DNA of 63,153 nucleotides, the filler included, from Deltaproteobacteria bacterium (lineage in GTDB: Bacteria > JAEEML01), in NCBI GenBank assembly GCA_016283195.1. It is 3 parts of 3 records of this genome, joined end to end, with 100 filler letters (N's around TTAATTAATTAA, not from the genome) between each part and the next. Parts side by side here need not be neighbours in the genome. Positions count along the whole stretch, not along the records: positions 31,751 to 58,131 come from JAEEML010000051.1; 2 more parts are not named here. One strand, written 5' to 3'. This document shows positions 39,481 to 57,539 of this stretch, in pieces. A program made the position numbers and the translations under genes. Numbering within the stretch: position 1 is the stretch's first letter; every line of letters starts with the position of its first letter. Below the pieces are notes generated by a model that saw only the letters and a program-made list of their open reading frames with translations, made no database searches and had not been told where the DNA came from.

Positions 39481-39640
39481 GACGAGCAGCCCTGCCCGCC
39501 TTTTGTGTACACAAAGACAGTGGCACTATATAGGAGGGCAAGGGAATTGGCAACAGTTTCCAAAGATTTTATGGCTGCTTGCCCCCTTTGGCTCTGGTTC
39601 AGCGTTTTAAGGCGAACAAAAAAAGAAAAAAGTTTTCACA

Positions 39641-39673
39641 CCATCACAATCTGATAGTCACCCTGATTATTAT
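39641..39673 (+). promoter_or_regulatory. Putative WYL box 1 + -10 (CCATC-ACAATCT-GATAG, N10, TATTAT)
   Basis: Motif copy upstream of AAA ATPase. Confidence 0.75.
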
Positions 39674-39735
39674 GCTCTTTAAGGGAGTGCTTAGGCTCTT
39701 GGGATTTTCCTGTGGCAGCACCTGGGAGGCAAATT

Positions 39736-41466
39736 ATGGCCAGAGCAAAAAAAGTAGCATTTAATGTCATGAATACTCTCGATTTTGCAGGTGAAATACT
39801 GAAAAAATCAAAATTTAAACCGGAAGAAAAGGAAAACTTTCCTAAAGGCGAATTTGCTGAAGCTATTGATAAACTCGCGAAATATTTTGGCACCAGCGGC
39901 TATGCAACCTGGATTTTAACCGGCATAATCTTCGAATATTTTGGTGGCAGCCAGGGCTTTAGGCCCAGTGATAATACCAGCATGGGCGATATAGCTGATT
40001 TTTTTAATATATCACCAATAAAACTAATGGGTTACAGAGAAGATATATTAAGTCTTATGGCCAAAGGCTATATAAAGAACGAGCGCACTTTTGGTAAGAG
40101 TATCGGCCGCTTTAACTCCTTTAGCGTTAATCCGGATCTCATAAATTGCCTTTTGCAAAATCAGCCGCTTTGTTTCCCTAAAGAGCCGGAGACCATGACC
40201 CTGGCCGAGGGCCTGGAAAAACTGGCTGATATGCTTGAAGACCATAATGATTTCACCAAGCGGGAAGGAATCAGGGCTATGATGGAGATGGAAGAACTCT
40301 TCTTTAAAGGTAAGAAGCTTAAAGAGATTAGAAAACTTTTGCGGCCGCGCGGCTCCAGATTGCAGGAGAATCTCGATAGCCTGCTGTTTTATGCTATTTT
40401 TAATAACTCCCTGCAAGGCGATGAGACGCGTCTTTTGCACACTGTACAGCAAATTTACAATGGGGAATATCACCTTATTATGACCAAATTCTTAAAGGGT
40501 ACACACCCGCTTTTGCAAAAAGAACTGGTTGAATTATGCGAGCGGGAAACGGCGCAAAAGGCCACAGTGACGCTGACGCAAAAAGCTCTCGAAATTTTTC
40601 TGGGCGCAGAAGAAGCTAAAATGTACAGTCTTTTGAACAGCGAAGCCCAGGCCGAGCTCTTAAAGCCCGAAGAAATAAAAGTAAAAGAACTTTTTTATAA
40701 TAAAGAAAATACAAAAGATATTGAGCGCTTGTATTCTTTTCTTAACGAAGAAAATCTGCGCAAAATAGGAAAGCGCCTGGAAGAACAAGGCTTTGCCAAG
40801 GGTATCGCCGTTTTACTCTACGGCCCGCCGGGAACGGGCAAAACCGAAACTGTTTTACAACTGGCAAGAGCCACGGGGCGGGCGGTGCTTCATGTGGATA
40901 TAAGCGACACCAAGTCCTGCTGGTTTGGTGAGAGCGAAAAAATCATCCGCAAAATTTTTACCGATTACCGGCGCCTTTGCGAAGTGCAAAATCGCCATAG
41001 CGAAGGCAAAGCGCCAATTTTGCTCTTTAACGAGGCCGATGCTGTTTTGTCAAAGCGCAAAGATATATCCTCCAGTAATGTGGCGCAAACCGAAAATGCC
41101 ATCCAAAATGTCATCTTGGAGGAGATGGAAAAGCTAAAAGGCGTTATGATTGCCACCACCAACATGATTGATAATTTAGATGCTGCTTTTGAGCGCCGTT
41201 TCCTTTTTAAAATCATGCTGGATAAGCCAAGCGTGGAAGCCAAAAGAAAAATATGGGCCTCCCGCCTGCCGTGGCTAAATAGTGCAGAGGTGGATATTTT
41301 TGCTAAAAATTATAATTTCAGTGGCGGGCAGATAGATAATATTGTGCGCAAAATAACCATGGAAGAGATTTTGAGCGGCCAGCACCCCAGCCCGGAAGAA
41401 CTGGCGGAATATTGCCGCCATGAGAAACTTGATACCCAAAGCGCGGCTAAACCCATCGGTTTTTAA
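39736..41466 (+). CDS. AAA+ ATPase with long N-terminal domain
   Basis: GPPGTGKT Walker A, LLFNEAD variant Walker B, TTN...LDAAFERRF, C-terminal PIGF; GGAGG RBS before ATG 39736. Confidence 0.92.
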   Translation: MARAKKVAFNVMNTLDFAGEILKKSKFKPEEKENFPKGEFAEAIDKLAKYFGTSGYATWILTGIIFEYFGGSQGFRPSDNTSMGDIADFFNISPIKLMGYREDILSLMAKGYIKNERTFGKSIGRFNSFSVNPDLINCLLQNQPLCFPKEPETMTLAEGLEKLADMLEDHNDFTKREGIRAMMEMEELFFKGKKLKEIRKLLRPRGSRLQENLDSLLFYAIFNNSLQGDETRLLHTVQQIYNGEYHLIMTKFLKGTHPLLQKELVELCERETAQKATVTLTQKALEIFLGAEEAKMYSLLNSEAQAELLKPEEIKVKELFYNKENTKDIERLYSFLNEENLRKIGKRLEEQGFAKGIAVLLYGPPGTGKTETVLQLARATGRAVLHVDISDTKSCWFGESEKIIRKIFTDYRRLCEVQNRHSEGKAPILLFNEADAVLSKRKDISSSNVAQTENAIQNVILEEMEKLKGVMIATTNMIDNLDAAFERRFLFKIMLDKPSVEAKRKIWASRLPWLNSAEVDIFAKNYNFSGGQIDNIVRKITMEEILSGQHPSPEELAEYCRHEKLDTQSAAKPIGF

Positions 41467-41477
41467 GCGAAAAAAGA

Positions 41478-41510
41478 ATATCATTTTCTGATAGAGTGTG
41501 CCATTATCCT
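41478..41510 (+). promoter_or_regulatory. Putative WYL box 2 + -10 (ATATC-ATTTTCT-GATAG, N10, TATCCT), autoregulatory
   Basis: Motif copy directly upstream of the WYL gene. Confidence 0.7.
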
Positions 41511-41526
41511 CGTCGGGAGGTGTTTT

Positions 41527-42552
41527 ATGGATAATGAAAACGGGCGCAAGTCGCTGAACACCATGATGTTAAACCGCATTTTAATCATTCATCAACTAAT
41601 AAAATCAGGTAGTTACCCGAGCCGCGAGCGCATCCGCGACAAAATTGAGGATGTTTTAAGAGTAGAGCGCCCCAGCACAGCTACATTTTCGCGCGATATG
41701 AATACGCTGCGCGATATTTTTAAAGCCGATATTGCCTATAGCAAGGAATATGGGGGCTATTATTACACCGACAAAAATTTTAACCTGCCACTCAATAATT
41801 TAAAAGGTGATGAGCTTTTTTACCTCACCTGCGCCAAAACACTACTGGAAAATTTTGCGGGCACGCCGCTCTATAAAGAAATCAGCGCCGCCATCGCTTT
41901 TGTGGTGGATTCTTCCGGCCATGTGGGCGGTGATTTATTAAGCCGCATTGCTGTGCCGCCTACTCCGCAGGCCAGTATTGATAATGCCGTGTGGCAGCTT
42001 TTAAAGGGCGCTCTCCTTAGTTGCCAAATTGTGGAATTTGCTTATGTCGGCCGCTGGCACGAAGAAAAAAAGCGCCGCCGCGTGCGCCCGTACCAAATTC
42101 TTCTCGATGAAGGCATGTATTACCTTTGGGGCTATGATGAACTGGCTACTCCGGCCGGTACCAGGCTCTTTTGTTTTCCGCGCATCGAAAACCTCACCAT
42201 AACCGCTGATACTTTTGAGTTGCCTGATGATTTTGAATTTAAAAAGCATACCGGCGGCGGCAAAATGGGAGTGTGGAGCGATACGCACACTCTTAATTAC
42301 AGAGTGGAATTTTTCGGCGTTTCCAAGAATTTTGTCAAAGATTACGTTTGGGCCGAAGAGCAAGTAATAGAAGATGTCCCAGAGCATGATTCCGTGGTTA
42401 TTACTTTTCGCTCGGCGCAGTGGCAACGCGTTTTGGGGTGGATTTTGTCCCAAGGGGCGGGAGCCAGGCCGCTGGAGCCGCAGTGGCTGGTAAAAGCCTG
42501 GAAAGATGAGATTAAAAAGATGGAGAGCCGGGCGGCCGGTGTAGAAGGGTAA
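41527..42552 (+). CDS. HTH-WYL-WCX transcriptional regulator (PafB/DriD-like)
   Basis: wHTH (TFSRDMNTLRD...GGYYY), WYL core (RRVRPYQI...YYLWGYD...RLFCFPRI), WCX (WILSQGAGARPLEPQWL). Confidence 0.93.
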   Translation: MDNENGRKSLNTMMLNRILIIHQLIKSGSYPSRERIRDKIEDVLRVERPSTATFSRDMNTLRDIFKADIAYSKEYGGYYYTDKNFNLPLNNLKGDELFYLTCAKTLLENFAGTPLYKEISAAIAFVVDSSGHVGGDLLSRIAVPPTPQASIDNAVWQLLKGALLSCQIVEFAYVGRWHEEKKRRRVRPYQILLDEGMYYLWGYDELATPAGTRLFCFPRIENLTITADTFELPDDFEFKKHTGGGKMGVWSDTHTLNYRVEFFGVSKNFVKDYVWAEEQVIEDVPEHDSVVITFRSAQWQRVLGWILSQGAGARPLEPQWLVKAWKDEIKKMESRAAGVEG

Positions 42553-42714
42553 GCATAAAAGTGCTTTGCGCTCACCGGCAGCGCAATTTTGCTATAATAG
42601 TTTTCTCTTGCTACATATTTTAACCTTTTTTTATATGACAACAAATCCATGAAGTGCTAAGATGCGCCAGCGTTATTGGTGAGACAATGACGACTCTATT
42701 ATGGAGGAAAACTC

Positions 42715-44424
42715 ATGAAATTAAAAAGAAATTTGGTGCTGCTTCCTTCTGTGCTTCTTCTGGCTCTTACCGCTTGTTCCGATAACAAGAAAGAGGCTTC
42801 GGCCGGTAATGCGGCCACCCAGCCCGAGGCCGCCGTAAAAAAACCGCTCCCCGATAAATTATCTATTTTTTACGGCAATACCCGCCCGACTCTATTTTCT
42901 GTACCGCAGGCTTACCAATGGTCTATCGGTGCTCTGCTCGATAATGGCGATAACTTTTGTACCGGTACTCTGATTGAAGATGATGTTGTGCTCACAGCCG
43001 CTCACTGCGCTTATGATGATAATAACAATATCAGCTCAATAAACGGTATTTCTTTTGGTATCGGGCCGGACATGAAAAATCCCGCTCACAAAATTGCGGT
43101 GAAAAAAATCATTCCCCACGAAGAGTATCTTAAAAACTGCGCTAAAGATCCGGATGGTATTTCCTCTAAAAATGATGTGGCTCTCTTTATTTTAAAAGAA
43201 AAAGCCAGCAAATATGTTCCCACTTTAAAGCCCATCCCCATGAATAAGGCCTCTTTGGCGAGTCTCAAAGGTGATAGTGTGCAAAATGTGGGCTATGGCA
43301 CCACCGAAGGCACCGGCAGTTTTGATTATTACAATTATTACAACACCAAACGCCTCTGGACAGTCGAAGAAGTTACCGCGGTCAGCTCTTTTGATTTCAC
43401 CGTCGATGGCAAAGGTATCTCTTCCGTTTGCATGGGCGACTCCGGCGGCCCGGCTCTTTATGCTATAGATAACCAGATTTACATTGTCGGTACCGTCTCC
43501 TGGGGCCAAAGCACCTGTTTGGGCGAAGCGCACTATGCCCGCGTTAATGATAATATTGCCTGGATTACCGAAAAGCTGGGCCACGAAGTGGAAGATTACC
43601 TCTTGCCGATTGACTCTCCCGAAGAGCCGGTGCCTGCCGATGAGTGCGAAGGTATTACGGCTGACGGTGTTTGTGATGGCACTATCCATAAATGGTGCTC
43701 TGAGGATGGCACTTTGCACGAACTTGATTGCAAAAGCCTCGATATGGTTTGCGGCAATATCGGCGAGTTCCGCACCTGCATTACCCCGGAGGTCAGCAGT
43801 TGCGGCAATATCGGCCGTAAAGCCATTTGCGATGGCAATATCCTTAAATGGTGCGGTGATGATGGCACCATTAAAGAAGTCGATTGCACTATTCTCGGGG
43901 AGATTTGTGCGAGCAATGAGTATGCCGCTTGTGTAAAAGAAGAAGATAGCTGTGGCAGCATTACTACTGCTGTTTGCGATGGTAATGTGGTTAAGTGGTG
44001 TGGCGCCATCGGCACCCTTATAGAGCATGATTGTGCGGAAGAAAATAAAACCTGCGGTTTAACGAGCTTTGGCGAATATTGGTGCATTGATGCACCTGCT
44101 GATAATTGCGGCGATGTTACTTTTGTCGGTGGTTGCGATGGCCAAGTCGCCCGCTGGTGTCAAAATGGTATCGTTTACGAGCATGATTGTGCCTTGGAAA
44201 ACAAAGCTTGCGGCTTTGTAAATGATGTCGATGGTTATTGGTGTGTGGAGACTGATAATCAGCCAGATCCCAATGACCCCTGCGGCGGCATCTCTTATCT
44301 TGGCCGGTGCAACGGCAATGTCGCCGAGTGGTGCGAAGAGGGCACCATTATTAAACGCGATTGCGCCCGTACTGGTTATGTTTGTGGCTATGTGAGCCCG
44401 GAACTGGGCTATTACTGCAAATGA
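42715..44424 (+). CDS. S1 trypsin-like serine protease lipoprotein with C-terminal Cys-rich repeats
   Basis: Lipobox LTAC; CTGTLI, LTAAHC, NDVAL, GDSGGP; repeated CDGNxxKWC units. Confidence 0.93.
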   Translation: MKLKRNLVLLPSVLLLALTACSDNKKEASAGNAATQPEAAVKKPLPDKLSIFYGNTRPTLFSVPQAYQWSIGALLDNGDNFCTGTLIEDDVVLTAAHCAYDDNNNISSINGISFGIGPDMKNPAHKIAVKKIIPHEEYLKNCAKDPDGISSKNDVALFILKEKASKYVPTLKPIPMNKASLASLKGDSVQNVGYGTTEGTGSFDYYNYYNTKRLWTVEEVTAVSSFDFTVDGKGISSVCMGDSGGPALYAIDNQIYIVGTVSWGQSTCLGEAHYARVNDNIAWITEKLGHEVEDYLLPIDSPEEPVPADECEGITADGVCDGTIHKWCSEDGTLHELDCKSLDMVCGNIGEFRTCITPEVSSCGNIGRKAICDGNILKWCGDDGTIKEVDCTILGEICASNEYAACVKEEDSCGSITTAVCDGNVVKWCGAIGTLIEHDCAEENKTCGLTSFGEYWCIDAPADNCGDVTFVGGCDGQVARWCQNGIVYEHDCALENKACGFVNDVDGYWCVETDNQPDPNDPCGGISYLGRCNGNVAEWCEEGTIIKRDCARTGYVCGYVSPELGYYCK

Positions 44425-44549
44425 GTATCCCGCTCTGCCAGACTTTGCTCGACTCTTCTTATAATTTTGGGCAATTCATGCCGCTTCTTGATTAAAACCT
44501 GCTATGTATAGCCGAAGGTTGTGTTATACTCCGCCGCCGGAGGCTTTTT

Positions 44550-44663
44550 ATGAGCATTTACCTGAATCCATGTAGGCAGTATTTTAAAAAAATCGCCGAC
44601 ATGGCTATCTATGTGTTATATTGGAAAATGCCCAGCTGGGGCTGGAACGGGCGAAATTTTTAG
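44550..44663 (+). pseudogene. 37-codon chimeric remnant: AAA-ATPase-like N-terminus (MSIYLNP...) joined to a MIF/tautomerase C-terminus
   Basis: Translates MSIYLNPCRQYFKKIADMAIYVLYWKMPSWGWNGRNF*; tail matches AVYVSYWETPNWGWNGHNF* of 53941-54282. Confidence 0.75.
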
Positions 44664-44689
44664 CGCAGGCTGACAATTTTTTCATCACA

Positions 44690-44722
44690 CTATCGTAATC
44701 TGATAGCCAAGGGTCGTATAGG
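44690..44722 (+). promoter_or_regulatory. Putative WYL box 3 + weak -10 (CTATC-GTAATCT-GATAG, N10, TATAGG)
   Basis: Motif copy upstream of mini-ORF and mcrB. Confidence 0.75.
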
Positions 44723-44765
44723 GAAGAAAAGCGGGGAGAATCCCTACTTGGAAAGGAAGAGAACT

Positions 44766-44816
44766 ATGGTTAGGGCAAAGAAGGTGCGATTTAGGTGGCG
44801 AGGCTTGCTAAGCTGA
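44766..44816 (+). pseudogene. Mini-ORF MVRAKKVRFRWRGLLS*, resembling the start of the AAA ATPase (MARAKKVAF)
   Basis: ATGGTTAGGGCAAAGAAGGTGCGATTT vs ATGGCCAGAGCAAAAAAAGTAGCATTT at 39736; AAGGAAG upstream. Confidence 0.6.
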
Positions 44817-44877
44817 GGTGGGTATGCTAGGGTGGAGCAGCTGATGTGAGCTGGGAAAGCAGTTGAGGAGGAAAATT

Positions 44878-46569
44878 ATGGGATATTGGCATATGCAATT
44901 ACATCCGAATGACCTTTCGAATTATACTCGGGAAGATATTCTAGGACTAGTTAAAAATGAAGGCGTAATAGGCATTGGTGAAAGTTGGATTGGAGATCAT
45001 GGTCAACCAAGTAATTTCAAAAATGTTTTAAAAGAGGGAGATATTGTTCTTATCAGACATAATGGTCCGCTGTGTTTAGTTCGAGTAATTGGTTCCTGTT
45101 TTGAAAATCCTAACCAAACTCAGGTAAAAGCATGGTTCTATTTTTGCAGAAGAGTAGTGATATTAGATGAAAATGGGAAAGAAATGGCGGATAAATTCCA
45201 AAAGGAAACGAAAAAATCGTGGAATAATAATATTTATTTACCAGATACTTTAGGACATGCAGACAAATGTGAGTTTATAAAATTTTGGTATCAGGAAATA
45301 TTGAAAAAGGAGCAGATAGAAAAAATGCAGAAAGTGGTTGAGCTATTAAAACTAAAAAAGAACATCATCCTCCAAGGTGCTCCCGGTACTGGTAAAACCT
45401 ATACCACAGCAGAATTGGCTTTATCCATTTGCGATGGTATAGATAAAGTTCCCAATAGTCATAAAAAAGTTATGGAGTGCTATGAAAAATTGCAACAGCA
45501 AGGGCAAATTGGCTTTATTACTTTTCATCAGTCCATGGATTACGAGGATTTTGTGGAAGGAATAAAGCCAGTTTTGGAAAAAAATGTGAGTACAGATAAG
45601 AATGAAGTATCTTATAAGATTTCGCCCGGAATTTTTAAAAGTATATGTGGTAAAGCTGAAAAAGAATTATTATCATCATTTGATAATGCTTGGAATAAAC
45701 TGCTAGGAGAGATTGAAAAATCAAGCGGTAATCCATATAAGTTAACAACTGTAAAACAAGAAACTGAGTTTGGCTTAGAAATAAATAAAAATGATGGATT
45801 AACTATATGTACTGGCAAAGATTTTACAGAAAAAAATGTTGGCAGTATAACAAAAGATAACTTACGTCAGTTTTGGCAAAACAAATATGATGGCGATGGA
45901 CGTTCCTCCTATTATGAAGGTGTTTTAGCAGAATTAACGAATAAGTATAATCTGAAGAACTATGAACTAAAAAACTACGTCCTCATCATCGACGAAATCA
46001 ACCGCGGCAATGTCTCCAAGATTTTTGGTGAGTTAATCACACTCTTGGAAGCAGATAAACGCAAGCTTGTCGGAGTTGACGATTCTCCAGAAAATCAGGA
46101 AAAACAACATACAATTGAATTAACACTCCCATATTCAAAAGAAAAATTCTCTGTTCCGTCTAATCTTTACATCATCGGCACCATGAACACCACCGACCGC
46201 AGTGTTGGCTCTATTGATTATGCTGTGCGCCGCAGATTTTCCTTTGTGACTCTGGAAGCAAATAGATCAAAGATAGAAGACGAAAACGCAAAGAAACTAT
46301 TTGATTCCGTTAAGCACTTCCTAAATAAATCCAAGTACGATATGGACATCGAAGATTTGATGGTTGGCCATAGCTACTTTATGGATGCTGCCAATTTGCA
46401 GATGAAATGGCAATATGAAATTCTGCCACTTCTGATGGAGTATCATAAAGATGGAATTATTAAGGAATCTCCATTGAAGGTTTTCTCTGAGGAAGAAGCC
46501 AAAAAAGTAAAGTTGGATTATAATTTATTCATCGAAAAATGGTCTGAGAAGAAATCTGAAGAAGCTTAA
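44878..46569 (+). CDS. mcrB: McrB-family GTPase (type IV restriction)
   Basis: GAPGTGKT, TFHQSMDYEDFVEG, IIDEINRGN, GTMNTTDRS (NxxD), RRRF, GHSYF. Confidence 0.93.
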   Translation: MGYWHMQLHPNDLSNYTREDILGLVKNEGVIGIGESWIGDHGQPSNFKNVLKEGDIVLIRHNGPLCLVRVIGSCFENPNQTQVKAWFYFCRRVVILDENGKEMADKFQKETKKSWNNNIYLPDTLGHADKCEFIKFWYQEILKKEQIEKMQKVVELLKLKKNIILQGAPGTGKTYTTAELALSICDGIDKVPNSHKKVMECYEKLQQQGQIGFITFHQSMDYEDFVEGIKPVLEKNVSTDKNEVSYKISPGIFKSICGKAEKELLSSFDNAWNKLLGEIEKSSGNPYKLTTVKQETEFGLEINKNDGLTICTGKDFTEKNVGSITKDNLRQFWQNKYDGDGRSSYYEGVLAELTNKYNLKNYELKNYVLIIDEINRGNVSKIFGELITLLEADKRKLVGVDDSPENQEKQHTIELTLPYSKEKFSVPSNLYIIGTMNTTDRSVGSIDYAVRRRFSFVTLEANRSKIEDENAKKLFDSVKHFLNKSKYDMDIEDLMVGHSYFMDAANLQMKWQYEILPLLMEYHKDGIIKESPLKVFSEEEAKKVKLDYNLFIEKWSEKKSEEA

Positions 46570-46574
46570 AAGTA

Positions 46575-47945
46575 ATGGAACTACAGCTATTTAACTTCGA
46601 GGAACATCAGCGCCTTGAAGGTGCCGTTCAAATCGAGGCGTTCAAAAGTCTTTTGGATGCCGGTCATGTTTTGTGTCCTGCCGTTTCGAATTATAAATCT
46701 ATTAAGGACGTAGAACATCTCGGTGTTTTCAATGATGGAGGTATTCCCAAAGCCCATTACTATATTGGAGCCTCTTGGTTCATAAAAGACAAGTGTGCCT
46801 TTGTCGTAAAGCCCAAAGTGGATGTTGATTACATCAAGCTGTTCATGACGGCATTGGAGTTGAATTCCGAAAATGAGGCTGCATATTTCTCCAATTACTA
46901 CTACATTGATTTTGAAAAGCCCGCGATAAAGACGAACGCCTTGAATAATGTAATCACGCCGCTGCTTATTTTGCATTACTTATCTCTGCTTAAGCATCTT
47001 GTTTCAAGGGGACTCAAGAAGGGCTATGTTGTTCGGGAAGAAAACTTGCAGTCCAAAATCCGTGGGCGAATCCTGTTGCAAAGGCATTTGACGAAAAATG
47101 TTTTCGCCAAAAGGGAGGATCGTGTTTTTTGCCGATTCCAGGAATTCACGGAGGATATTCCGGAGAACAGGATCCTCAAAAAGGCATTGTCTTTCTCTGT
47201 TCGTTTCATAAATCAGTATGAAAGCTTCAAAAGTCATCTGCAAGAATTGACTCCGCAGTTGGCGATGATTGGTTCCGCTTTCGAGAATGTTTCCGAAGAT
47301 GTGACGATTGCCCAAGTCGCTAAGGTCAACGCCGGCAAGATATTCCGCCATTACGAAGCCGCCATCAAGGTTGCCAAACTGATTCTGCGCCATTTTGATT
47401 ATTCCATTGACAATGCTTCGGAAACTGCACAGGGTGTGCGACCCTTCTGCATCGACATGCCCCGCCTCTATGAGATGTATGTGCTGAGTTTGCTACGCAA
47501 GGCATACCCCGGGCAGATTAGTTTTCAAGTAAAGGGAACGCACAAAACGCAGGTCGATTACATCAATGTTAATGAACAGATTATTCTTGATGCGAAGTAT
47601 AAACCGCGCTATCAAAAAGGTGATATAGGCATAACTGAAGATGTAAGAGAAATTAGCGGTTATGCAAGGGATAAAAAAATCCATAAGGCTTTAAAATGGA
47701 ATGCGAACATCACTGACAAGAATGGCAAATTATTGCCAGATTGCGTGATTGTTTACCCTGTTGTACAAGTAGAAGAAAACGACAATGGGGAATTGCCGGA
47801 TGTTGTTCCAGAAAATAACTGTTCCTGCAAATATGAATTTGACGAAAATAAGTCTATTGTTAGCCAGTGCGATGAAATAAAGGCTTTCGAAGGCTTTTAC
47901 AAAATCGCTGTTCCGCTACCCACAACGGATTCGGCGGCAAATTAA
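46575..47945 (+). CDS. mcrC: McrC-family nuclease subunit
   Basis: Directly after mcrB; DIPENRILK, IDMPRLYEMYV, VD...ILDAKYK. Confidence 0.9.
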   Translation: MELQLFNFEEHQRLEGAVQIEAFKSLLDAGHVLCPAVSNYKSIKDVEHLGVFNDGGIPKAHYYIGASWFIKDKCAFVVKPKVDVDYIKLFMTALELNSENEAAYFSNYYYIDFEKPAIKTNALNNVITPLLILHYLSLLKHLVSRGLKKGYVVREENLQSKIRGRILLQRHLTKNVFAKREDRVFCRFQEFTEDIPENRILKKALSFSVRFINQYESFKSHLQELTPQLAMIGSAFENVSEDVTIAQVAKVNAGKIFRHYEAAIKVAKLILRHFDYSIDNASETAQGVRPFCIDMPRLYEMYVLSLLRKAYPGQISFQVKGTHKTQVDYINVNEQIILDAKYKPRYQKGDIGITEDVREISGYARDKKIHKALKWNANITDKNGKLLPDCVIVYPVVQVEENDNGELPDVVPENNCSCKYEFDENKSIVSQCDEIKAFEGFYKIAVPLPTTDSAAN

Positions 47946-48132
47946 TAATTACTTTATGAGCCGTACCCGCTAAAGCGCCGCATTTGCCCAAACTTTTCCC
48001 TCGCCAGACTTTCGTCCATCGGTTATAATGTGCAACCGGCTTTATCGGAAAAGCGCTGTTGTTACCGAAAGCCACAAACCGGGAAATGAGATTTAGAGGC
48101 AATTAGTCGATTTTAGCTTGGGAAAATGGGTT

Positions 48133-49152: not shown

Positions 49153-49279
49153 TTTTATAGTGCTGAACAGCAAAGATATTACAATACAATTTAGAGTTTG
49201 AAACCGCCCCTGCTAAATGCCTTTTGCCCCACTGGCGCCAGCGGGAATTTTTTGCCTATTATTCTTTGTTTCTACCGAA

Positions 49280-50539: not shown

Positions 50540-50618
50540 GTTGCTACCTCTATTCTTTCTGCTGTCTGGCGTGTTTTGGTACCCTTGGGCGCGCTGCCTT
50601 ATGCTGCCAGCAGGAGAG

Positions 50619-50651
50619 ATTATAAAGCGGTGCACTATCAGATTGCGATAG
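50619..50651 (-). promoter_or_regulatory. Putative WYL box 4 + -10 (minus strand CTATC-GCAATCT-GATAG, N10, TATAAT)
   Basis: Perfect TATAAT 10 nt from the motif, upstream of the LRR gene. Confidence 0.8.
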
Positions 50652-50691
50652 TGTGAGAAAATTTTTACTTTTTGCACTTTTTTGTATGACA

Positions 50692-50724
50692 CTATCGTAT
50701 TTTGATAGTCCGGCCTTGTATCAT
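50692..50724 (+). promoter_or_regulatory. Putative WYL box 5 + -10 (CTATC-GTATTTT-GATAG, N10, TATCAT)
   Basis: Back-to-back with box 4; no sizeable ORF downstream. Confidence 0.75.
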
Positions 50725-50806
50725 CAATCCAAGATTGGGCGCCCCAGGTGGGCGCGATGGGAGTGAAAAGCCCCGGTTAGTCCTGCTGCCATTCAGTAAG
50801 TGTACC

Positions 50807-50965
50807 TTAAAAAGTTCTATCCTCCAAAAGCCACTTCCAGGCCGGAATTATTTCAATTTGGGAGCCATTTTTTAAATCTACGCTGCCTTCTTCATCAAAG
50901 GTGACTATAACCATCCGTTTTAGCGGTTTAAAGGCATGGAGTTTTTTTAACGCTCCGGTTTCTCG
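50807..50965 (-). pseudogene. 3' remnant of an AAA/DUF4143-type ATP-binding protein gene
   Basis: RETGAL...VIVTFDEE...IEIIPAWKWLL resembles that family's C-terminus; no credible 5' part. Confidence 0.6.
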
Positions 50966-51063
50966 CTTTTTGTCCAGTGTTGGCGAACAGAATTGCTGCT
51001 TTTTGTCCAGCACTAATGGACAGATTCGAAAGGTGAACACCTTTTTTACTTTTTTGTATGACA

Positions 51064-51096
51064 GTATCGTATTTTGACAGCCTCGGTCCACATCAT
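51064..51096 (+). promoter_or_regulatory. Degenerate WYL box 6 (GTATC-GTATTTT-GACAG, N10, CATCAT)
   Basis: Part of a ~33-nt duplication of 50676-50708. Confidence 0.55.
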
Positions 51097-51099
51097 CGT

Positions 51100-52698
51100 C
51101 TAAAGAAGCGCCCTACTCTGCCGCCGCACCACCTGGCACCCCTCATCAAAAGCATCCTCCGCCACTTGGGTATTGGCCGGTATGATTACCTTTTTCAGCT
51201 TTTTGCAGCCGCTAAAAGCTCCCTCATCAATAACATTTACATTTTGGGGAATTTTAATATGCTCTAGTTTCGCGCAGCAATTAAAGGCCAAATCGCCGAT
51301 AAAAGTTAGCGATTTAGGCAGTTTTACTCTTTTTAACTTGGGGCACCATTCAAAAGTGCTGTAGGCGATGGCGCTAATACCCTCCGGAATTTCGATTTTT
51401 TCCAGCGACTTTGCTCCCATAAAAGCTTGTGCCCCGAGAAAGGCCAGTTCTTTGGGCAAAGTAATCTTTTTTAAAGAAAAGCAGCACCAAAAGGCAGCCG
51501 CGCCGATATGAGTGACGCTGGGCGGAATTTCCAGTGTTTCCAGCTTCATGCAGCGCCAAAAAGCGGCGTCTTCTATAGTAGTTAGCCCAGCTGGCAGTTT
51601 GATATATTTTAGTTTTTTGCAACTAGAAAAGGCATTTTCGCCTATAGTGGTTACGCTAGGTAAAATATTGGCTTCCTCTTTAGTCCTCAGGCAGCGGATA
51701 AGCCTTTTTCCGTCTTTGCTGTAAAGAATGCCATCAATGGCCGTAAAGTTAGGGTTATCTTCTGCTACTATCAATGATTTCAGCTTGTTACAGTACATAA
51801 AAGCTTCTTCACCCAAAGCTGTCACCTCTTTGGAGAGGGTGATTTTTTTCTTGGCCGCTGGACAAAGGATGAGCTTTTTTCCATCTTTTGTGTAAATAAG
51901 GCCCTCTTTAGAGCAAAAGTGCTGATTATTTGGCGCAGCTACCAGCTCTTGCAAACTGTTATCGCCGAACCAGTCGCCACCGCTGATTTTACGCAGCTTT
52001 TCCGGCAGCAAAAGGCGGCGCAGTTTAGGACACCGACAAAATGCTCCAAGATTTAACTCCTCAATATTATTTGATAAAGTAACGCTTTTGAGATTCTGAC
52101 ACCCGCCAAAGGCATTATTGCCAACCCAGGTTACACTAGGTGGCAAAACAATTTCGCTGAGGCCGGTACATTCGCCGAAAGCGCCGGACACTATTTTTGT
52201 TACTCCATCGGGAATGGTGATTTCTTTTAACTTACTGCAACCATTAAAGGCGAGATTGCCAATTTCCTTAACACCTTGGGGAATTTGTACTTGGCTTTTC
52301 CCTTTGGGGCAACGCAATAGCTTTTTCTCATCTTTACTGTAAAGGATGCCGTCCTTGGAGCTAAAAGCCTGATTATTATGGGTGACATTAATCTCTCTAA
52401 GTTGCGGCAGGTCTATAAATAATGCGTGGCTCATTATGCCTCTATGAGCAGCAGGCAGAATATCGGGCAGGGTCAGCGCTATGATATTAGCGCCCTTTAA
52501 TTCCCAGAGGTTAAAATCATCGCCGAGAACGCTGGCAGCGGAAAAGTCCAAAGATACCAAGTATTTTGTTCCAGCCAGAGCGGCGGAAATTTGGGCTAAG
52601 ACCTCATTATTAAGGGCACCGCTAAAAATGATGGTGCTATCCTGAGTGAGTTCAGTGAGGTTTTTCGCTATGCTCTCTTCGGTGGCGTGGATAACCAT
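51100..52698 (-). CDS. BspA-type leucine-rich repeat protein, no signal peptide
   Basis: IPDGVTKIVSGAFGEC repeats, DGILYSKD modules, GGAGG RBS. Confidence 0.92.
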   Translation of the reverse strand: MVIHATEESIAKNLTELTQDSTIIFSGALNNEVLAQISAALAGTKYLVSLDFSAASVLGDDFNLWELKGANIIALTLPDILPAAHRGIMSHALFIDLPQLREINVTHNNQAFSSKDGILYSKDEKKLLRCPKGKSQVQIPQGVKEIGNLAFNGCSKLKEITIPDGVTKIVSGAFGECTGLSEIVLPPSVTWVGNNAFGGCQNLKSVTLSNNIEELNLGAFCRCPKLRRLLLPEKLRKISGGDWFGDNSLQELVAAPNNQHFCSKEGLIYTKDGKKLILCPAAKKKITLSKEVTALGEEAFMYCNKLKSLIVAEDNPNFTAIDGILYSKDGKRLIRCLRTKEEANILPSVTTIGENAFSSCKKLKYIKLPAGLTTIEDAAFWRCMKLETLEIPPSVTHIGAAAFWCCFSLKKITLPKELAFLGAQAFMGAKSLEKIEIPEGISAIAYSTFEWCPKLKRVKLPKSLTFIGDLAFNCCAKLEHIKIPQNVNVIDEGAFSGCKKLKKVIIPANTQVAEDAFDEGCQVVRRQSRALL

Positions 52699-52740
52699 TT
52701 TTTCCTCCGCGGCGCGCTGGTATTTTAAGCGCCTGGAGAG

Positions 52741-52773
52741 ATTATAAAGTGGCGCACTATCAGATCACGATAG
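52741..52773 (-). promoter_or_regulatory. Putative WYL box 7 + -10 (minus strand CTATC-GTGATCT-GATAG, N10, TATAAT)
   Basis: Perfect TATAAT 10 nt from the motif, upstream of the second LRR gene. Confidence 0.8.
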
Positions 52774-52907
52774 TGGGGAGCGAAAAAACACTTTGGGCGG
52801 GGCTCTTTACCTTAAAGGCTTTGGCAGAGCGCGGGCAGCTGTGCTATACTGCGCTACCGCGTAGCGCGGGAATGGGGTAAAAAGAATAGTGAGAACGGAA
52901 AAGAAAC

Positions 52908-53786
52908 ATGAGCTCTGGTAAAATGTCGATTCGTTTCTATAAAGACCGCGAGGTGCGTGCCGTATGGGACGAACAAAACGACAAATGGTGGTTTTCGGCT
53001 ATTGATATAATCAAAGCCATAACAGGCGAAAATGATTATATAAAAGCCGGCAATTACTGGCGTTGGCTCAAGAAAAAGCTGATTGCTAGCAACATTCAAC
53101 TCGTGAGTGTCACTCACGACTTCAAATTCCAGGCTCCTGATGGCAAAAAACGGGCCGCCGATGCCCTTGATAATAACTGTGTGCAACTTTTAACTAGGAA
53201 TTTTCCTAATAACAAGGCGATAGAATTTCTTGAGTGGTTTAATTACAGCGAAAATTCTCTCGATGGCCAAAGCAAGAAAAAGGCCTATACCTTTTGGCAG
53301 AGCAATATAGTAACCCTCGAAGATATTAGGACAACAAAAGCACTAAAGCAGATTCATGCTTATATTTTCGGCGGGCTATATGACTTCGCAGGAAAGATAC
53401 GTACCAAGACCATTAGTAAAGGTGGGTTTACGTTTTGTGTGGCGGAGTATTTAGATAGTGCTTTAAAATCAATAGAAAAAATGCCTGAAAATACTTTTGA
53501 GGAAATAATTGATAAATATGTGGAAATGAATGTAGCCCATCCATTTATGGAAGGCAATGGCCGTAGCACGCGAATTTGGCTTGATTTAATATTAAAAAAG
53601 CGGCTTGGCAAATGTGTGGATTGGAGCCAAATAGGCAAAAAAGAGTATCTAAGCGCCATGGTGGAAAGTCATATTAATTTTGCGCAAATAAAAGAAATAT
53701 TAAAAAGAGCTCTTACCGATAAAATAGATGATCGCGAATTATTTATGAAAGGCATTGATTATTCTTATTATTATGAGGAAGATTGA
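52908..53786 (+). CDS. BRO-N-like + Fic domain protein (AMPylase)
   Basis: EVRAVWD...WWFSAIDII N-terminus; HPFMEGNGRSTR Fic motif. Confidence 0.92.
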   Translation: MSSGKMSIRFYKDREVRAVWDEQNDKWWFSAIDIIKAITGENDYIKAGNYWRWLKKKLIASNIQLVSVTHDFKFQAPDGKKRAADALDNNCVQLLTRNFPNNKAIEFLEWFNYSENSLDGQSKKKAYTFWQSNIVTLEDIRTTKALKQIHAYIFGGLYDFAGKIRTKTISKGGFTFCVAEYLDSALKSIEKMPENTFEEIIDKYVEMNVAHPFMEGNGRSTRIWLDLILKKRLGKCVDWSQIGKKEYLSAMVESHINFAQIKEILKRALTDKIDDRELFMKGIDYSYYYEED

Positions 53787-53940
53787 GAATCTCGCCGCTG
53801 CGTGAGGCAGAGAAGGTGGAGAATAGAGGATGGGGTGAAAGTTAAAGCCTGAATAGCGCCGGAGGTGGCATAGCTACGCAGGCTGGAGATATATAACAAC
53901 GAGTCGCTAGTGCGCTCAATAAAGAACAGGAGAGAAAACC

Positions 53941-54282
53941 ATGCCCATGATTGAAGCCAAAGTAACTATGAAACTGGCGGAAGAAAAAAGAGATTTGCTG
54001 AAAAGCGAGTTTGGTGAGGCCATCGGCCTCATGGGTAAGCCGGAGTCTTATCTCATGATAAACCTGGCTGATGAGCAGGATTTATACTTTGCCGGCAAGA
54101 AGCTTGATAAAGGGGCCTATGTGGAAGTGAAAGTCCTGGGCCATGTGGAGGCGAGCGCCAGCAGCAAAATGACGAGCAAAGTATGCGAAATCATGCAGAA
54201 AGAGCTCGGTATCCCCGGTAATGCCGTTTATGTGTCTTATTGGGAGACGCCCAATTGGGGTTGGAACGGGCACAATTTTTAA
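53941..54282 (+). CDS. MIF / phenylpyruvate tautomerase-like protein
   Basis: N-terminal Pro (MPMI), GKPESYLM, C-terminal WGWNGHNF. Confidence 0.88.
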   Translation: MPMIEAKVTMKLAEEKRDLLKSEFGEAIGLMGKPESYLMINLADEQDLYFAGKKLDKGAYVEVKVLGHVEASASSKMTSKVCEIMQKELGIPGNAVYVSYWETPNWGWNGHNF

Positions 54283-54313
54283 AATAAGTAGCCGCTAAAA
54301 TTTTTTCAGCACA

Positions 54314-54346
54314 CTATCGTAATTTGATAGTGCCAGGTTTTATATT
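54314..54346 (+). promoter_or_regulatory. Putative WYL box 8 + -10 (CTATC-GTAATTT-GATAG, N10, TATATT)
   Basis: Motif copy upstream of metallophosphoesterase. Confidence 0.8.
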
Positions 54347-54414
54347 ACCCGCCGGGAGGCGCTCGGAAAAGCTGGCCAGCACCAAAATATACACATTCCT
54401 GCGAGGTGCTCTTT

Positions 54415-55167
54415 ATGATTTACATAACCGGCGATACGCATAACAGCGAGGATATGTCTAACCTTTCTAAAGCCAATATGGAGGTCTGCTGCTTGGAACA
54501 AAAGGCAGATTACGGCGCTATTACGATGGCAATTGTGCTGGGCGATTTTGGCCTGCCATGGCACACGGCTTTTGTGGCCCGGGACGGCATTCATCCAACT
54601 AGTAGCACAGATAAAAAACTGCTGGCCTGGTACAACAAGAAGCCCTTTAAAGTTTTGGCCCTGATGGGTAACCACGACAACTACGATATGCTCAAAAAGC
54701 TGCCGCCGGTGGCAATGTTTGGTAGCACGGTTTTAAAGGTGAGCGAGAATGTTTTTTACCTGAAACGCGGCGAAGTTTATACTATTGAAGAAAAGCGCTT
54801 TTTAGTGCTCGGCGGGGCTTTAAGTGTTGATAAAATATATAGAATTTCCCATGAATCCTGGTGGGAGGAAGAGGCCTGGAACGCTACTGAAAAGGAGGCA
54901 CTCCTAGCTAAAATAGCGGCGGGCGAGCGCACATTTGATTATGTGCTCTCGCATAATGGGCCAACTGCCGGCATTGCCTCGGTGGAAGAATATGTTAAAA
55001 ATGGCGGGGAAGTGATGAAAGATCCGGTGGTGGTTTTTAATGATCAAATAGATTCTATGATTACATATAAAAAATGGTTCTTTGGCCACTGGCACAGTGA
55101 CTCGGGGTATAAAAATTTAAAAGAGAATAAGTACATAGCGCTTTACCATGAGGGGGTGGTGGTCTAA
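54415..55167 (+). CDS. Calcineurin-like metallophosphoesterase
   Basis: GDTH, LGDFG, GNHDNY, LSH, GHWH. Confidence 0.92.
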   Translation: MIYITGDTHNSEDMSNLSKANMEVCCLEQKADYGAITMAIVLGDFGLPWHTAFVARDGIHPTSSTDKKLLAWYNKKPFKVLALMGNHDNYDMLKKLPPVAMFGSTVLKVSENVFYLKRGEVYTIEEKRFLVLGGALSVDKIYRISHESWWEEEAWNATEKEALLAKIAAGERTFDYVLSHNGPTAGIASVEEYVKNGGEVMKDPVVVFNDQIDSMITYKKWFFGHWHSDSGYKNLKENKYIALYHEGVVV

Positions 55168-55218
55168 AGTTTTTTAAATTTTTCAGCACCGCGATTTTTT
55201 CTGATTTTTTCCTCGGCA

Positions 55219-55251
55219 CTATCGTATTTTGATAGCCTACCACTTTATAAC
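55219..55251 (+). promoter_or_regulatory. Putative WYL box 9 + -10 (CTATC-GTATTTT-GATAG, N10, TATAAC)
   Basis: Motif copy upstream of 191-aa hypothetical gene. Confidence 0.8.
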
Positions 55252-55293
55252 AACAGCAGTGGGCAAAACGCCCCAAAAAAGTGGGAGGCTTCT

Positions 55294-55869
55294 ATGCATG
55301 CTAAAAAGAAGATCAAAGAAGCGCTGGAAGAACGCTATATTAGACTAAACCAGAATTTCCAATGGTCTCCGGAAAATATAGAAAAAATCATCGCTCTTAA
55401 TAATGAACTTTTAGAACGTTACCGCGAAGCTTATAACGAACTTCGGCGCTTTAAAAATGAATTTAATGCGCGCTACTTGGCAGGCGACCAAAATTATCGG
55501 GATTATACGCTGGAAGTAGAATTTTGGTACCCATTACCACCCGCTTTAAGTGGTGATGAAGAACAACTTTGGGAGAATCTTGGTGAAACAAGCACTTGTT
55601 GGGGCACCTCTCTTTTGACATTTAGCCATTATGGAGATGAGGGAAGCTCAGATATTCCTCCGTTTGAAGAGGTGATGTCGATAGATGAAACGTCCTGGAA
55701 TGATTACCCTTTTAATAACAAAGCTCTTGACGGCACTTATATTTATTATTTCATGCATGAGATTTTTGGTAACAATGAAACCTACTCACTGGCAGATGCC
55801 GTGCAGATGAAAGCGGAAAATTTTGCCTGGCAACTGATTATCAAACTGGAGCATTGGGGGAATGGATAA
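55294..55869 (+). CDS. Hypothetical acidic protein
   Basis: GGAGG RBS, 191-aa ORF. Confidence 0.78.
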   Translation: MHAKKKIKEALEERYIRLNQNFQWSPENIEKIIALNNELLERYREAYNELRRFKNEFNARYLAGDQNYRDYTLEVEFWYPLPPALSGDEEQLWENLGETSTCWGTSLLTFSHYGDEGSSDIPPFEEVMSIDETSWNDYPFNNKALDGTYIYYFMHEIFGNNETYSLADAVQMKAENFAWQLIIKLEHWGNG

Positions 55870-55998
55870 GGGTAATTAAGGAAAAACAGCTTGCTGCTGG
55901 TGAGAAAAGATCGGATATTGCGCTGAGAAGTGCGGAGTATGGGAAATAGCCTAATACTTTGTAAACTTTAGTTAAAAAATATCTTTTGAGGCAACATC

Positions 55999-57270
55999 AT
56001 GTCTAAAATACTTTTAAAATCAGCACTTATTGAAGCCACTCGTGGCAAAAGCGTGCGCCGCGATATCCTTATTGCCGGGGGGCGCTTCCAAAAAATCGCT
56101 GCAACTATTTCTGCTGAAGAAGCCGGTGATTGCGAAGTGGTGGACTCTTCAAATTTTGCAGTACTTCCGGCATTTTATAATGGGCACACCCATGCGGCGA
56201 TGACCCTTTTACGCGGCTATGCCGACGACATGGAGCTCTCACGCTGGCTAAATGAATATATCTGGCCGATGGAAGCTAAGCTTAGGCCCGCAGATATCAG
56301 AATAGCCAGCCGCCTGGCCGTTTTGGAGATGATAAAGTCGGGGACGGTCTTCTTTGCCGATATGTATTGGCACCACGATGAGACGCTGAAAGTTGTGGAA
56401 GAGATGGGCGTTAGGGCAACGATTGGCCTCTCCATGGCCGACCTATTGCAACCACCGGAAGAAATTGAAAAATCTTTTGCCTTTTTGGTCGCCCACACGG
56501 GAGAATCGGAACGCGTGAAACTGGCGGTGATGCCGCATGCTGTTTACACGGTTAGCGAGGCGCTCTTAAAACGCTGTTTTGCCGTTGCCAAGGCGGAAAA
56601 TTATCTGGTGCACACCCATTTATCGGAAACGCGCCAGGAGGTGGAAAATTGCCAAAAACAGTATGGCTGCACCCCGCCGCAGCTTCTGGCTCGCCTGGGC
56701 GGGCTAAATGACAAGCTCATTGCCGCCCACTGCGTCCATTTTACGCCGGAAGATCGCCGGATTTTTGCCGCCGCCGGAGCCACGGCCATTACCAATCCCT
56801 GCTCTAATTTGAAACTGGCCAGCGGTATGCCCCAAATTAACGAACTATTGGCCGCCGGTATCAGAGTGGGCATTGGAACCGACGGCGCCTCCTCCAATAA
56901 CAGCCTCGATATGCACGATGATATGAAACTGGCGGCCCTTATTGCTAAAGTCAGCGGCTCGGCGGAAACGTTGCCGGCTAGAGAGGCGCTGGAAATGGCT
57001 ACAGTGCGGGTGGCTGAGGCTTACGGGCTTAATGCCGGGGTTATTGCCGAAGGAAAACTGGCCGATTGCCTGCTAATTGATCTCTCCGCCGAGAGCATGG
57101 TGCCCTGTTATGACCTGGTGAGCAACTGGGTTTATGCCGCTGATTCCAGGTGTATAGATTCGGTTATATGTAATGGAAAATTTATTATGCGCGGCCGCCA
57201 TGTGGATGGCGAAGAGGATATTCGGTGCGAGGCGGCGGCTTGTGCGGCGCGGCTGGTGCAAACTCCTTAA
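55999..57270 (+). CDS. Amidohydrolase, MtaD-like (MTA/SAH deaminase family)
   Basis: NGHTHAAM, PHAVYT, HTHLSET, AHCVH, GTDGASSNN. Confidence 0.88.
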   Translation: MSKILLKSALIEATRGKSVRRDILIAGGRFQKIAATISAEEAGDCEVVDSSNFAVLPAFYNGHTHAAMTLLRGYADDMELSRWLNEYIWPMEAKLRPADIRIASRLAVLEMIKSGTVFFADMYWHHDETLKVVEEMGVRATIGLSMADLLQPPEEIEKSFAFLVAHTGESERVKLAVMPHAVYTVSEALLKRCFAVAKAENYLVHTHLSETRQEVENCQKQYGCTPPQLLARLGGLNDKLIAAHCVHFTPEDRRIFAAAGATAITNPCSNLKLASGMPQINELLAAGIRVGIGTDGASSNNSLDMHDDMKLAALIAKVSGSAETLPAREALEMATVRVAEAYGLNAGVIAEGKLADCLLIDLSAESMVPCYDLVSNWVYAADSRCIDSVICNGKFIMRGRHVDGEEDIRCEAAACAARLVQTP

Positions 57271-57464
57271 TATTTAAGAAAAAAAATTCATATTACAAAT
57301 GTTCTATTCTTTCTTGGCATTCCATTCCGCAGAAAAGTAGTTCTACTGTGGCCGGCGGAGAGATTATTTCTGCATTTATTTTATCGTCCTCCATTTGGCA
57401 ACCTGGCGAAATCTATGGGATTAAGTAGATTTAAAACGCTATTTTTGAACTTTTTCCCTGCCAA

Positions 57465-57497
57465 TTATCACGATTTGATAGCCAGGCGGTTTAAGAG
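57465..57497 (+). promoter_or_regulatory. Putative WYL box 10 + weak -10 (TTATC-ACGATTT-GATAG, N10, TAAGAG)
   Basis: Motif copy upstream of alpha/beta hydrolase. Confidence 0.6.
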
Positions 57498-57539
57498 GCA
57501 AGAGCAGAGGGGCGAAGGCAGCCCAGAGAGGAGAGGAAG

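Follow-up and report, generated by a model that had tools for sequence, protein, structure and literature searches.

A palindromic box at promoters lacking a -35 element, and the WYL protein that probably reads it

Described WYL regulators and a clustered palindromic box

WYL-domain transcription factors include activators, such as DriD, DdaA and PafBC, and repressors, such as BrxR and CapW. In the activator group, the protein contacts RNA polymerase and is switched on when its WYL domain binds single-stranded DNA. Here we analyse a 63,153-nucleotide stretch of DNA from a Deltaproteobacteria bacterium (GenBank assembly GCA_016283195.1), referred to as the window, which carries a cluster of 17-bp palindromes of the form CTATC-N7-GATAG (the box), each followed after 10 nt by a -10-like hexamer. 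Within the cluster lies a gene (41527..42552, + strand) for a transcription factor with winged helix-turn-helix (wHTH), WYL and WCX domains, the proposed box binder. The box is probably the site of this protein, which would activate promoters without a -35 element in the manner of DriD, DdaA and PafBC; the fit to that group lies in the spacer, the position of the box and the missing -35.

The account of described systems given here draws on portions of the cited articles. DriD, a wHTH-WYL-WCX homodimer of Caulobacter crescentus (PMC13004042, PMC10853764, PMC9186387), binds the site ATACGAC-N7-GTCGTAT across the -35 position, with the same spacing to the -10 in all its promoters, which are described as having no -35, and contacts both the C-terminal domain of the alpha subunit and the beta subunit of RNA polymerase (PMC13004042). 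DdaA, from Acinetobacter/Moraxellaceae, has the box CGWCA-N5-TGWCG and activates repair and anti-phage genes (PMC12392091, PMC13010146), the latter comprising restriction-modification, CRISPR-Cas and Zorya systems (PMC12392091). In PafBC, the HTH of PafB binds a -26 motif while PafC contacts sigma domain 4 (PMC11804915), a mode of action termed sigma adaptation (Muller et al. 2021, as cited in PMC11804915). The BrxR repressor recognises an operator, located downstream of the -10, whose 11-bp inverted repeats are separated by a 5-bp spacer (PMC9122601), and in repressors of the CapW/BrxR type an RWHVR motif replaces WYL (PMC11662680).

The protein encoded at 41527..42552 contains a WYL domain at residues 155-224 (PF13280; 36.5 bits, cut-off 21.8) and a WCX extension at residues 272-332 (PF25583; 29.7 bits, cut-off 23.9). 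Pfam gave no match to an HTH in this protein, and the structural model (predicted local distance difference test, pLDDT, 75.4; predicted template modelling score, pTM, 0.35) displays at residues 12-80 an N-terminal winged HTH (pLDDT 82-93) made up of three helices and a beta hairpin. Foldseek aligns the model over its full length to DriD and PafB, with E values of 1.9e-15 for PafB, 2.5e-14 for DriD, 2.7e-9 for BrxR and 3.8e-9 for CapW. Comparison by family profile gives E values of 6.5e-11 for PafBC, 3.7e-9 for PafB, about 1e-4 for DriD, 6e-4 to 4e-3 for CapW and 0.05 for BrxR. The RWHVR repressor motif is absent from all 22 aligned family members, in which the position reads (Y/C/F)(Y/F/S)(L/V/I). 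A large protein collection holds 30 relatives, the closest being 74% identical and located on a short contig, the rest 37-44% identical; no WYL match was found among 50,697 phage records, and plasmid matches reach at most 28% identity.

The locus resembles the DriD system in having palindrome cores 7 bases apart, placed over the -35 position with constant spacing to the -10 of a promoter without a -35, and in the domain order of the regulator, for which DriD is the second-best Foldseek match. The palindrome centre lies about 18 bp from the -10 in the case of DriD, as counted on the didA probe (PMC13004042), and 19-20 bp from it here. The boxes differ, however, with CGAC/GTCG in DriD and CTATC/GATAG here; the two proteins are only 17% identical, and DriD targets didA, bapE, recJ and dnaG whereas the genes found here are of conflict and defence type. 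With DdaA the locus has in common a CA-N5-TG frame within both boxes, half-site cores 7 bases apart and a host without a LexA DNA-binding domain, as in Acinetobacter; a search for this domain (PF01726) found none in the present genome, which has an estimated completeness of 100% and is fragmented into 190 contigs. The core DdaA regulon, as described, is one of repair genes (recA, uvrA, ssb), whereas no repair gene carries a box here, and clade and box also differ.

PafBC provides the best solved match by both profile and Foldseek, and its -26 motif at promoters without a -35 has a counterpart here in the proximal half-site, TGATAG, at about -28 to -23. PafBC is a WYL heterodimer or fusion reading one half-site, whereas the single gene and full palindrome of this locus point to a homodimer. 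BrxR and CapW, which control BREX, CBASS and defence islands, belong to the same domain family, are self-regulated and have defence genes adjacent, and the McrBC pair and matches to PADLOC models show that the WYL gene studied here likewise sits with anti-phage defence genes. They differ in being repressors, in carrying the RWHVR motif absent here and in matching more weakly; in contrast to the BrxR operator, the box has a spacer of 7 and ends 10-11 nt upstream of the -10.

A preliminary description of this DNA had proposed a geometry like that of PafBC and DriD, and the present analysis bears this out, with a gap of 7 bases between half-sites, TGATAG 10-11 nt before the -10 and no -35. It had also regarded the motif and gene set as undescribed. 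Listings from literature searches are consistent with this, showing no article that names the box or a WYL regulon in Spirochaetia, with most subscription journals outside their coverage. The kind of system is already known, including a WYL activator of anti-phage genes (DdaA, as reported in the portions of PMC12392091 on which we draw).

The promoter element and its occurrence across the genome

The window joins, by spacers of N, three contigs of one 3.22-Mb draft genome, and the box cluster occupies the middle contig, C83 (31751-58131). CTATC-N7-GATAG occurs exactly six times in the window (44690, 50635, 50692, 52757, 54314 and 55219), compared with a mean of 0.03 in 100 shuffled sequences, none of which reached six. 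With up to one mismatch allowed there are ten occurrences against 1.19 expected, the one-mismatch boxes being those at 39641, 41478 and 57465 and an extra one at 59130; the latter, on the third contig, lies inside an open reading frame (ORF) without the surrounding architecture and was read as a chance occurrence. The copy at 51064 has two mismatches (GTATC...GACAG) and hence is absent from this list. All ten box coordinates given in the preliminary description were confirmed, three with one mismatch and that at 51064 with two, and all ten hexamers begin exactly 10 nt downstream of their boxes on the strands assigned to them. Seven of the window hexamers fit TANNNT, the weaker ones being TATAGG, TATAAC, TAAGAG and CATCAT. 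Eight of the ten sites are directed into an adjacent gene, as described, the exceptions being 50692 (+) and 51064 (+). The sites had all been called intergenic, which is correct for nine; the 51064 copy falls inside a doubtful 94-amino acid (aa) ORF without a Pfam hit.

The idea that the motif is limited to the cluster did not survive a search of the whole draft genome, where six further box promoters are found on other contigs, giving a total of 16 with the ten on C83. Twelve of the boxes are exact, six on C83 and one each on C7, C45, C46, C75, C125 and C172, and all twelve show the same oriented architecture. The genome scan with a position weight matrix that had been called for (37 positions, built from the 16 sites, cut at 14 bits) revealed no seventeenth site in the 3.22 Mb, coding DNA included, and returned only the 16 training sites and the reverse strand of two of them. 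Training sites match their own matrix by construction, and the informative part of this result is the lack of a seventeenth. One match to the 17-mer outside this genome, among 40 genomes related only at the level of the same domain, has neither A/T tract nor -10 and was attributed to chance.

The full element is longer than first noted and consists of an A/T tract, CA, CTATCGTAWTYTGATAG, T, 9 nt and the hexamer. The A/T tract reported ahead of the boxes is evident across the 16 sites, where A/T content reaches 94-100% at 11-14 nt before the box. Of the 16 hexamers at exactly 10 nt, 13 start with TA and nine fit TANNNT. No -35 element is recognisable at any of the 16 box promoters, which agree with TTGACA, at 16-18 nt, in no more than three of six bases, and none of them is among the -35/-10 consensus hits in the island of C83 that holds the cluster (35 hits against 33.7 expected). 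TG before the hexamer was likewise found in none of the box promoters of this genome. With the hexamer at -12 to -7, the peak of the A/T tract falls at about -53 to -50, the position of an UP element, and we infer that the tract acts as one. Within the box, all 16 sites have T at position 11 and 13 have G at its mirror, position 5, with a constant orientation relative to the hexamer. The Spirochaetia sites described below have T at position 11 in 124 of 130 and A at position 5 in only 95 of 130, and this directional asymmetry in both clades implies a constraint beyond that of a symmetric dimer.

In the proposed mechanism, the WYL protein would bind the 17-bp palindrome as a dimer, as the dyad symmetry of the inverted repeat suggests. 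Box, upstream A/T tract and -10 hexamer 10 nt downstream would together constitute a promoter without a -35, on which the regulator would occupy about -39 to -23 and aid the housekeeping RNA polymerase in starting transcription. The TGATAG half-site would fall where the '-26 motif' of PafBC lies, and the A/T tract would be positioned as an UP element for the C-terminal domain of the alpha subunit. A nucleic-acid ligand, probably single-stranded DNA, would be the trigger. The 16 promoters, ten of them in a mosaic, low-GC island, would direct expression of the regulator and of a variable set of conflict- and defence-type genes: an IetA-like AAA ATPase, McrBC, a metallophosphoesterase, leucine-rich repeat (LRR) and ankyrin proteins, a Schlafen-like helicase, a DUF6847 protein and proteins that belong to no known family.

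Association with the WYL gene in Spirochaetia and mode of action

Loci carrying relatives of the WYL gene were fetched by WYL homology alone, with the box ignored, using an alignment of relatives as the query and scanning one genome per species. The resulting 73 loci (1.03 Mb, 36-47% identity) come mostly from Treponema and other Spirochaetia, with four otherwise labelled as Bacteroidaceae, Prevotella, Fibrobacteraceae and 'bacterium'. They contain 74 exact copies of CTATC-N7-GATAG and 162 with up to one mismatch, against 0 and 13 for the control pattern GATAG-N7-CTATC, and spacers of 3-6 or 8-11 in place of N7 gave between 0 and 3 exact boxes. Of these loci, 65 include the N-terminus of the WYL protein and enough upstream DNA, and 42 of the 65 have a box with at most one mismatch no more than 200 nt ahead of the WYL gene.

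A further 121 Treponema-family genomes were scanned for CTATC-N6-TGATAG and grouped by closeness of the WYL orthologue. The 26 genomes with a close orthologue (E at most 1e-100) have a mean of 3.77 strand hits, and 13 of them have at least 4; the mean is 1.19 for the 32 genomes with a weaker orthologue (E 1e-100 to 1e-40), two of which have at least 4 hits, and 0.87 for the 63 without an orthologue at 1e-40, one of which does. The reversed control pattern gave means of 0.25-0.54 in these groups. The link between box and WYL gene, initially guessed from adjacency, is thus backed by 74 copies against 0, by 42 of 65 loci and by 13 of 26 genomes against 1 of 63, the last comparison also supplying the enrichment check in genomes lacking the homologue.

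These data bear on an explanation in which the box is read by another transcription factor or by an alternative sigma factor and the WYL gene is merely one of the targets. Such a reading draws on the fact that we infer, from sequence, the binding of the box by the WYL protein, on a second, unrelated WYL gene on contig C182 (34641-34844) and on the WYL gene's own box being among the weakest, at 28.6 bits. However, the WYL gene is the only one common to the 73 loci, by construction, and these hold 74 boxes against none for the control; the box tracks the WYL orthologue among Treponema genomes; and a perfect dyad with a fixed 7-base spacer suits a dimeric HTH protein, not a sigma factor. We regard another reader as very improbable.

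The spacing seen in the window recurs in these loci. Among about 160 Spirochaetia sites, TANNNT lies at an offset of 10 in 77, of 11 in 50 and of 12 in 34, with counts of 1-20 for the other offsets between 0 and 29. In the 130 sites that could be oriented, the hexamer follows the box by 10 nt in 75, 11 nt in 47, 12 nt in seven and 9 nt in one, so that the check for fixed spacing in homologue loci yields 10-11 nt in 122 of 130. At 37 of the 130 sites, mostly those of WYL genes, a start codon follows the hexamer by only 6-7 nt, which implies a leaderless mRNA and therefore a real -10.

Part of the gene set is also common to both phyla. Box-preceded in each are the AAA ATPase (44% identity), the metallophosphoesterase (60-64%), a 191-aa protein (45%) and LRR proteins. 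Other recurrent targets among the 59 Spirochaetia proteins scanned are an RNase T/DEDDh exonuclease (8 loci), a PD-(D/E)XK_4 nuclease, ankyrin and Sel1 proteins, and proteins of the HD, Fic, RtcB and AbiD families together with a GyrA-like protein. The targets are mostly genes of conflict and defence type, not of DNA repair.

Judging from the sequence, the protein quite probably activates rather than represses, but a number of points weigh against this view or against the regulon as a whole. At 23 of the 65 WYL loci there is no upstream box with at most one mismatch; some of these have two-mismatch or variant boxes (L033, L040, L078, L086) and in others the WYL gene lies in an operon behind a box-driven gene (L072, L073). 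The Mann-Whitney p value of 1e-4 for the Treponema-family comparison overstates independence, these genomes being related. All solved relatives of the WYL protein are remote (10-21% identity; 17-21% for PafBC and DriD), and the pTM of the model is the low value given above. Two of the ten island sites and two of the six elsewhere face no ORF. No gene of the recA, uvr, ssb, recJ or dnaG type was found downstream of the 16 sites or among the 59 Spirochaetia targets, so the target set, without repair genes, is unlike the regulons of DriD, DdaA and PafBC. WYL regulators that adjoin defence genes, namely BrxR and CapW, are repressors. Finally, the -10 in Spirochaetia is close to consensus, being TATAAT at 34 of 130 sites and preceded by the TG of an extended -10 at 70 of 130; promoters with such strong or extended -10 elements could fire without an activator, which makes repression at -39 to -23 conceivable.

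The last of these points leads to a reading in which the same protein and site are retained but the WYL dimer acts as a repressor over the -35 region of intrinsically active promoters, from which a ligand bound by the WYL domain releases it, as with CapW and BrxR at defence loci. In addition to the strong -10 elements and the TG of the Spirochaetia sites, the A/T tract in this genome, the defence-type cargo and the self-regulation typical of BrxR and CapW (as described in the portions of PMC9122601 and PMC11662680 on which we draw) are consistent with this. Steric repression, however, requires neither strict spacing nor asymmetry, and the distance of 10-11 nt is kept at 122 of 130 sites, before unrelated genes and in two phyla. 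The box promoters of the present genome have neither a -35 nor a TG; RWHVR occurs in 0 of 22 family members; the family scores closer to PafBC and DriD than to the two repressors; and the BrxR operator, as described, is built differently, downstream of the -10 (PMC9122601). Repression is accordingly judged unlikely, and activation by the WYL protein remains the preferred account.

Two of the loci with WYL orthologues show variant half-sites in the same architecture, CGCTC-N7-GAGCG in L086 (~9920-9960) and CTCTC-N7-GAGAG in L078 (~1795-1830). Their recognition helices read VTVRRDIE (L086) and ATISRDIE (L078) compared with ATINRDID, which is suggestive of specificity switches and makes the two loci candidates for such. 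A simple code relating helix to box fails, since the helix of the present genome also differs although its box is CTATC. A metagenome scan with the genome's own 17-mer found at least 121 stretches, about the chance level for 15 fixed bases. The 80 metagenome loci examined hold 82 matches, 14 of which have TANNNT at 9-11 nt, and four of those 14 are the window's own contigs (L139, L168-L170). Only L114, L138 and L160 look like real promoters, and of these only L138 has a WYL homologue (34%). One search of sequencing runs listed no RNA run, and the DNA runs listed had shares no higher than 0.12.

The island, its box-driven genes and duplicated promoters

The island (39600-58131) has a GC content of 43.5%, against 50.5% for the flanking core of the contig, and is patchy in composition, with 34.9% in mcrB, 37.2% in the DUF1016 gene and 38.2% in the Fic gene. 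No tRNA gene was found on contig C83, and no integrase was noticed on the island. PADLOC models match seven out of 14 proteins of the island and, at E up to 1e-5, 13 out of 43 additional targets.

The first box (39641..39673, +; CCATC-N7-GATAG, one mismatch, 37.5 bits) is followed after 10 nt by TATTAT and forms the promoter of a gene for an AAA+ ATPase (39712..41466, +), weakly similar to IetA/IteA, whose box-preceded Spirochaetia orthologues align over the full length. Next, the WYL gene has its own promoter (41478..41510, +), with the one-mismatch box ATATC-N7-GATAG and TATCCT at 10 nt. An exact box with TATAGG at 10 nt (44690..44722, +) stands ahead of mcrBC (44863..47945, +), a type IV restriction pair of a McrB-like GTPase (44863-46569) and McrC (46575-47945). 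Further along, an exact box with TATATT at 10 nt (54314..54346, +) is the promoter of the gene for a calcineurin-like metallophosphoesterase (54406..55167, +), which has box-preceded orthologues in four Spirochaetia loci. Another exact box, with TATAAC at 10 nt (55219..55251, +), precedes the gene of 191 aa (55294-55869), which belongs to no known family, and its transcript possibly continues into an amidohydrolase gene at 55999-57270. The final box (57465..57497, +; TTATC-N7-GATAG, one mismatch, 27.8 bits), with TAAGAG at 10 nt, precedes a gene of no assigned function that starts at 57540 and runs to the end of C83, which falls within this last box-driven gene.

Two exact boxes on the minus strand, each with TATAAT at 10 nt, lead into genes for BspA-type LRR proteins, the box at 50619..50651 into the first (49280-50542) and that at 52741..52773 into the second (51100-52698). 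Genes of the island without a box encode a trypsin-like protease, a DUF1016/YhcG protein, a BroN-Fic protein and a MIF protein. Consensus -35/-10 promoters with 10 of 12 matches, both on the plus strand, precede DUF1016/YhcG (48001-48029) and BroN-Fic (52821-52850), which implies that the island is only partly under control of the box. Box targets on the other contigs are genes for a DUF6847 protein, a 1113-aa ankyrin protein, a Schlafen-like helicase (PADLOC PDC-S41, E 5e-247) and a 286-aa protein of no assigned function.

The LRR gene and its box promoter have been duplicated in tandem (49280-52775), the promoter modules at 50613-50653 and 52735-52775 being 90% identical. Divergent from the promoter at 50619..50651 is an exact box with TATCAT at 10 nt (50692..50724, +), an orphan with no ORF downstream. 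A copy of this divergent promoter at 51039-51080 is 88% identical to the module at 50667-50708 and includes the degenerate box at 51064..51096 (+; GTATC-N7-GACAG, with CATCAT at 10 nt), which has probably decayed. The 94-aa ORF around it (50807-51091) was considered as the remnant of an ATPase gene, an idea rejected since it resembles neither candidate (E 1.4 and 1.1).

Such duplications would also be expected if the boxes were a copied promoter cassette, spread by duplication without a dedicated regulator, in which the palindrome is incidental. The promoter modules do resemble one another along about 42 nt (62-88% identity). Beyond the box and the A/T tract, however, the copies differ and the sequence of the 10-nt spacer is not conserved, and the same box and geometry stand before non-homologous genes in another phylum. 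A cassette without a reader is thus extremely improbable, and the box as the site of the WYL protein is again the favoured interpretation.

Relatives of the gene next to the island offer some indication of the host. The flhA-like gene at 37312-39480 (-) has its nearest named relatives at 84%, annotated by NCBI as SctV (type III secretion) and labelled as Myxococcota or Deltaproteobacteria metagenome-assembled genomes; the host lineage is probably Myxococcota-like. If so, the presence of the WYL gene, the box and part of the regulon in two phyla, together with the low and patchy GC content, would point to horizontal transfer of the WYL system. We put forward, as a tentative and rather doubtful extension, that a portable pair of regulator and -35-less promoter has crossed phyla, between gut or rumen Spirochaetia and this lineage, as a plug-in 'alarm' switch in which a box promoter of about 45 bp could recruit any gene into an inducible set. 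In that event the AAA ATPase, metallophosphoesterase and 191-aa protein might be the core of an undescribed conflict system, the genes for eukaryote-like repeat proteins (LRR, ankyrin, Sel1) and the Fic and helicase genes swappable cargo, and the orphan promoters a source of regulatory RNAs.

On the preferred reading, the activator-type WYL design would gain a clade that has a box of its own and consists mainly of Treponema and other Spirochaetia, together with this lineage. The system predicts sets of co-responding genes in organisms without LexA or a known stress regulon, and marks the AAA ATPase, metallophosphoesterase and 191-aa protein as co-regulated and probably conflict-related. The 130 oriented sites, many before leaderless genes that fix the -10, are suited to testing how strict the spacing from box to -10 is, and the prediction can be tested in cultured carriers such as Treponema bryantii NK4A124 (locus L056).

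Orphan box promoters, which face no ORF, are those at window positions 50692 and 51064, C45:3303 and C7:4170. The promoters at 50692 and C45:3303 are among the best by matrix score (49.0 and 50.2 bits), yet have no ORF. The former runs toward the degenerate 51064 copy and the 3' end of the LRR gene (window 50692-51100), the latter (3303-3509) into the 3' end of a convergent AAA_14/DUF4143 ATPase gene, and both may yield antisense or small RNAs; Rfam gave no match over 39000-58131 at E up to 0.1. The box regions of C7 (4120-4190) and C46 (2526-2600) have in common some 45 nt of almost identical upstream sequence. On C7 the -10 has been lost and the promoter copy points at an antisense MlaE gene; the C46 copy drives the DUF6847 gene.

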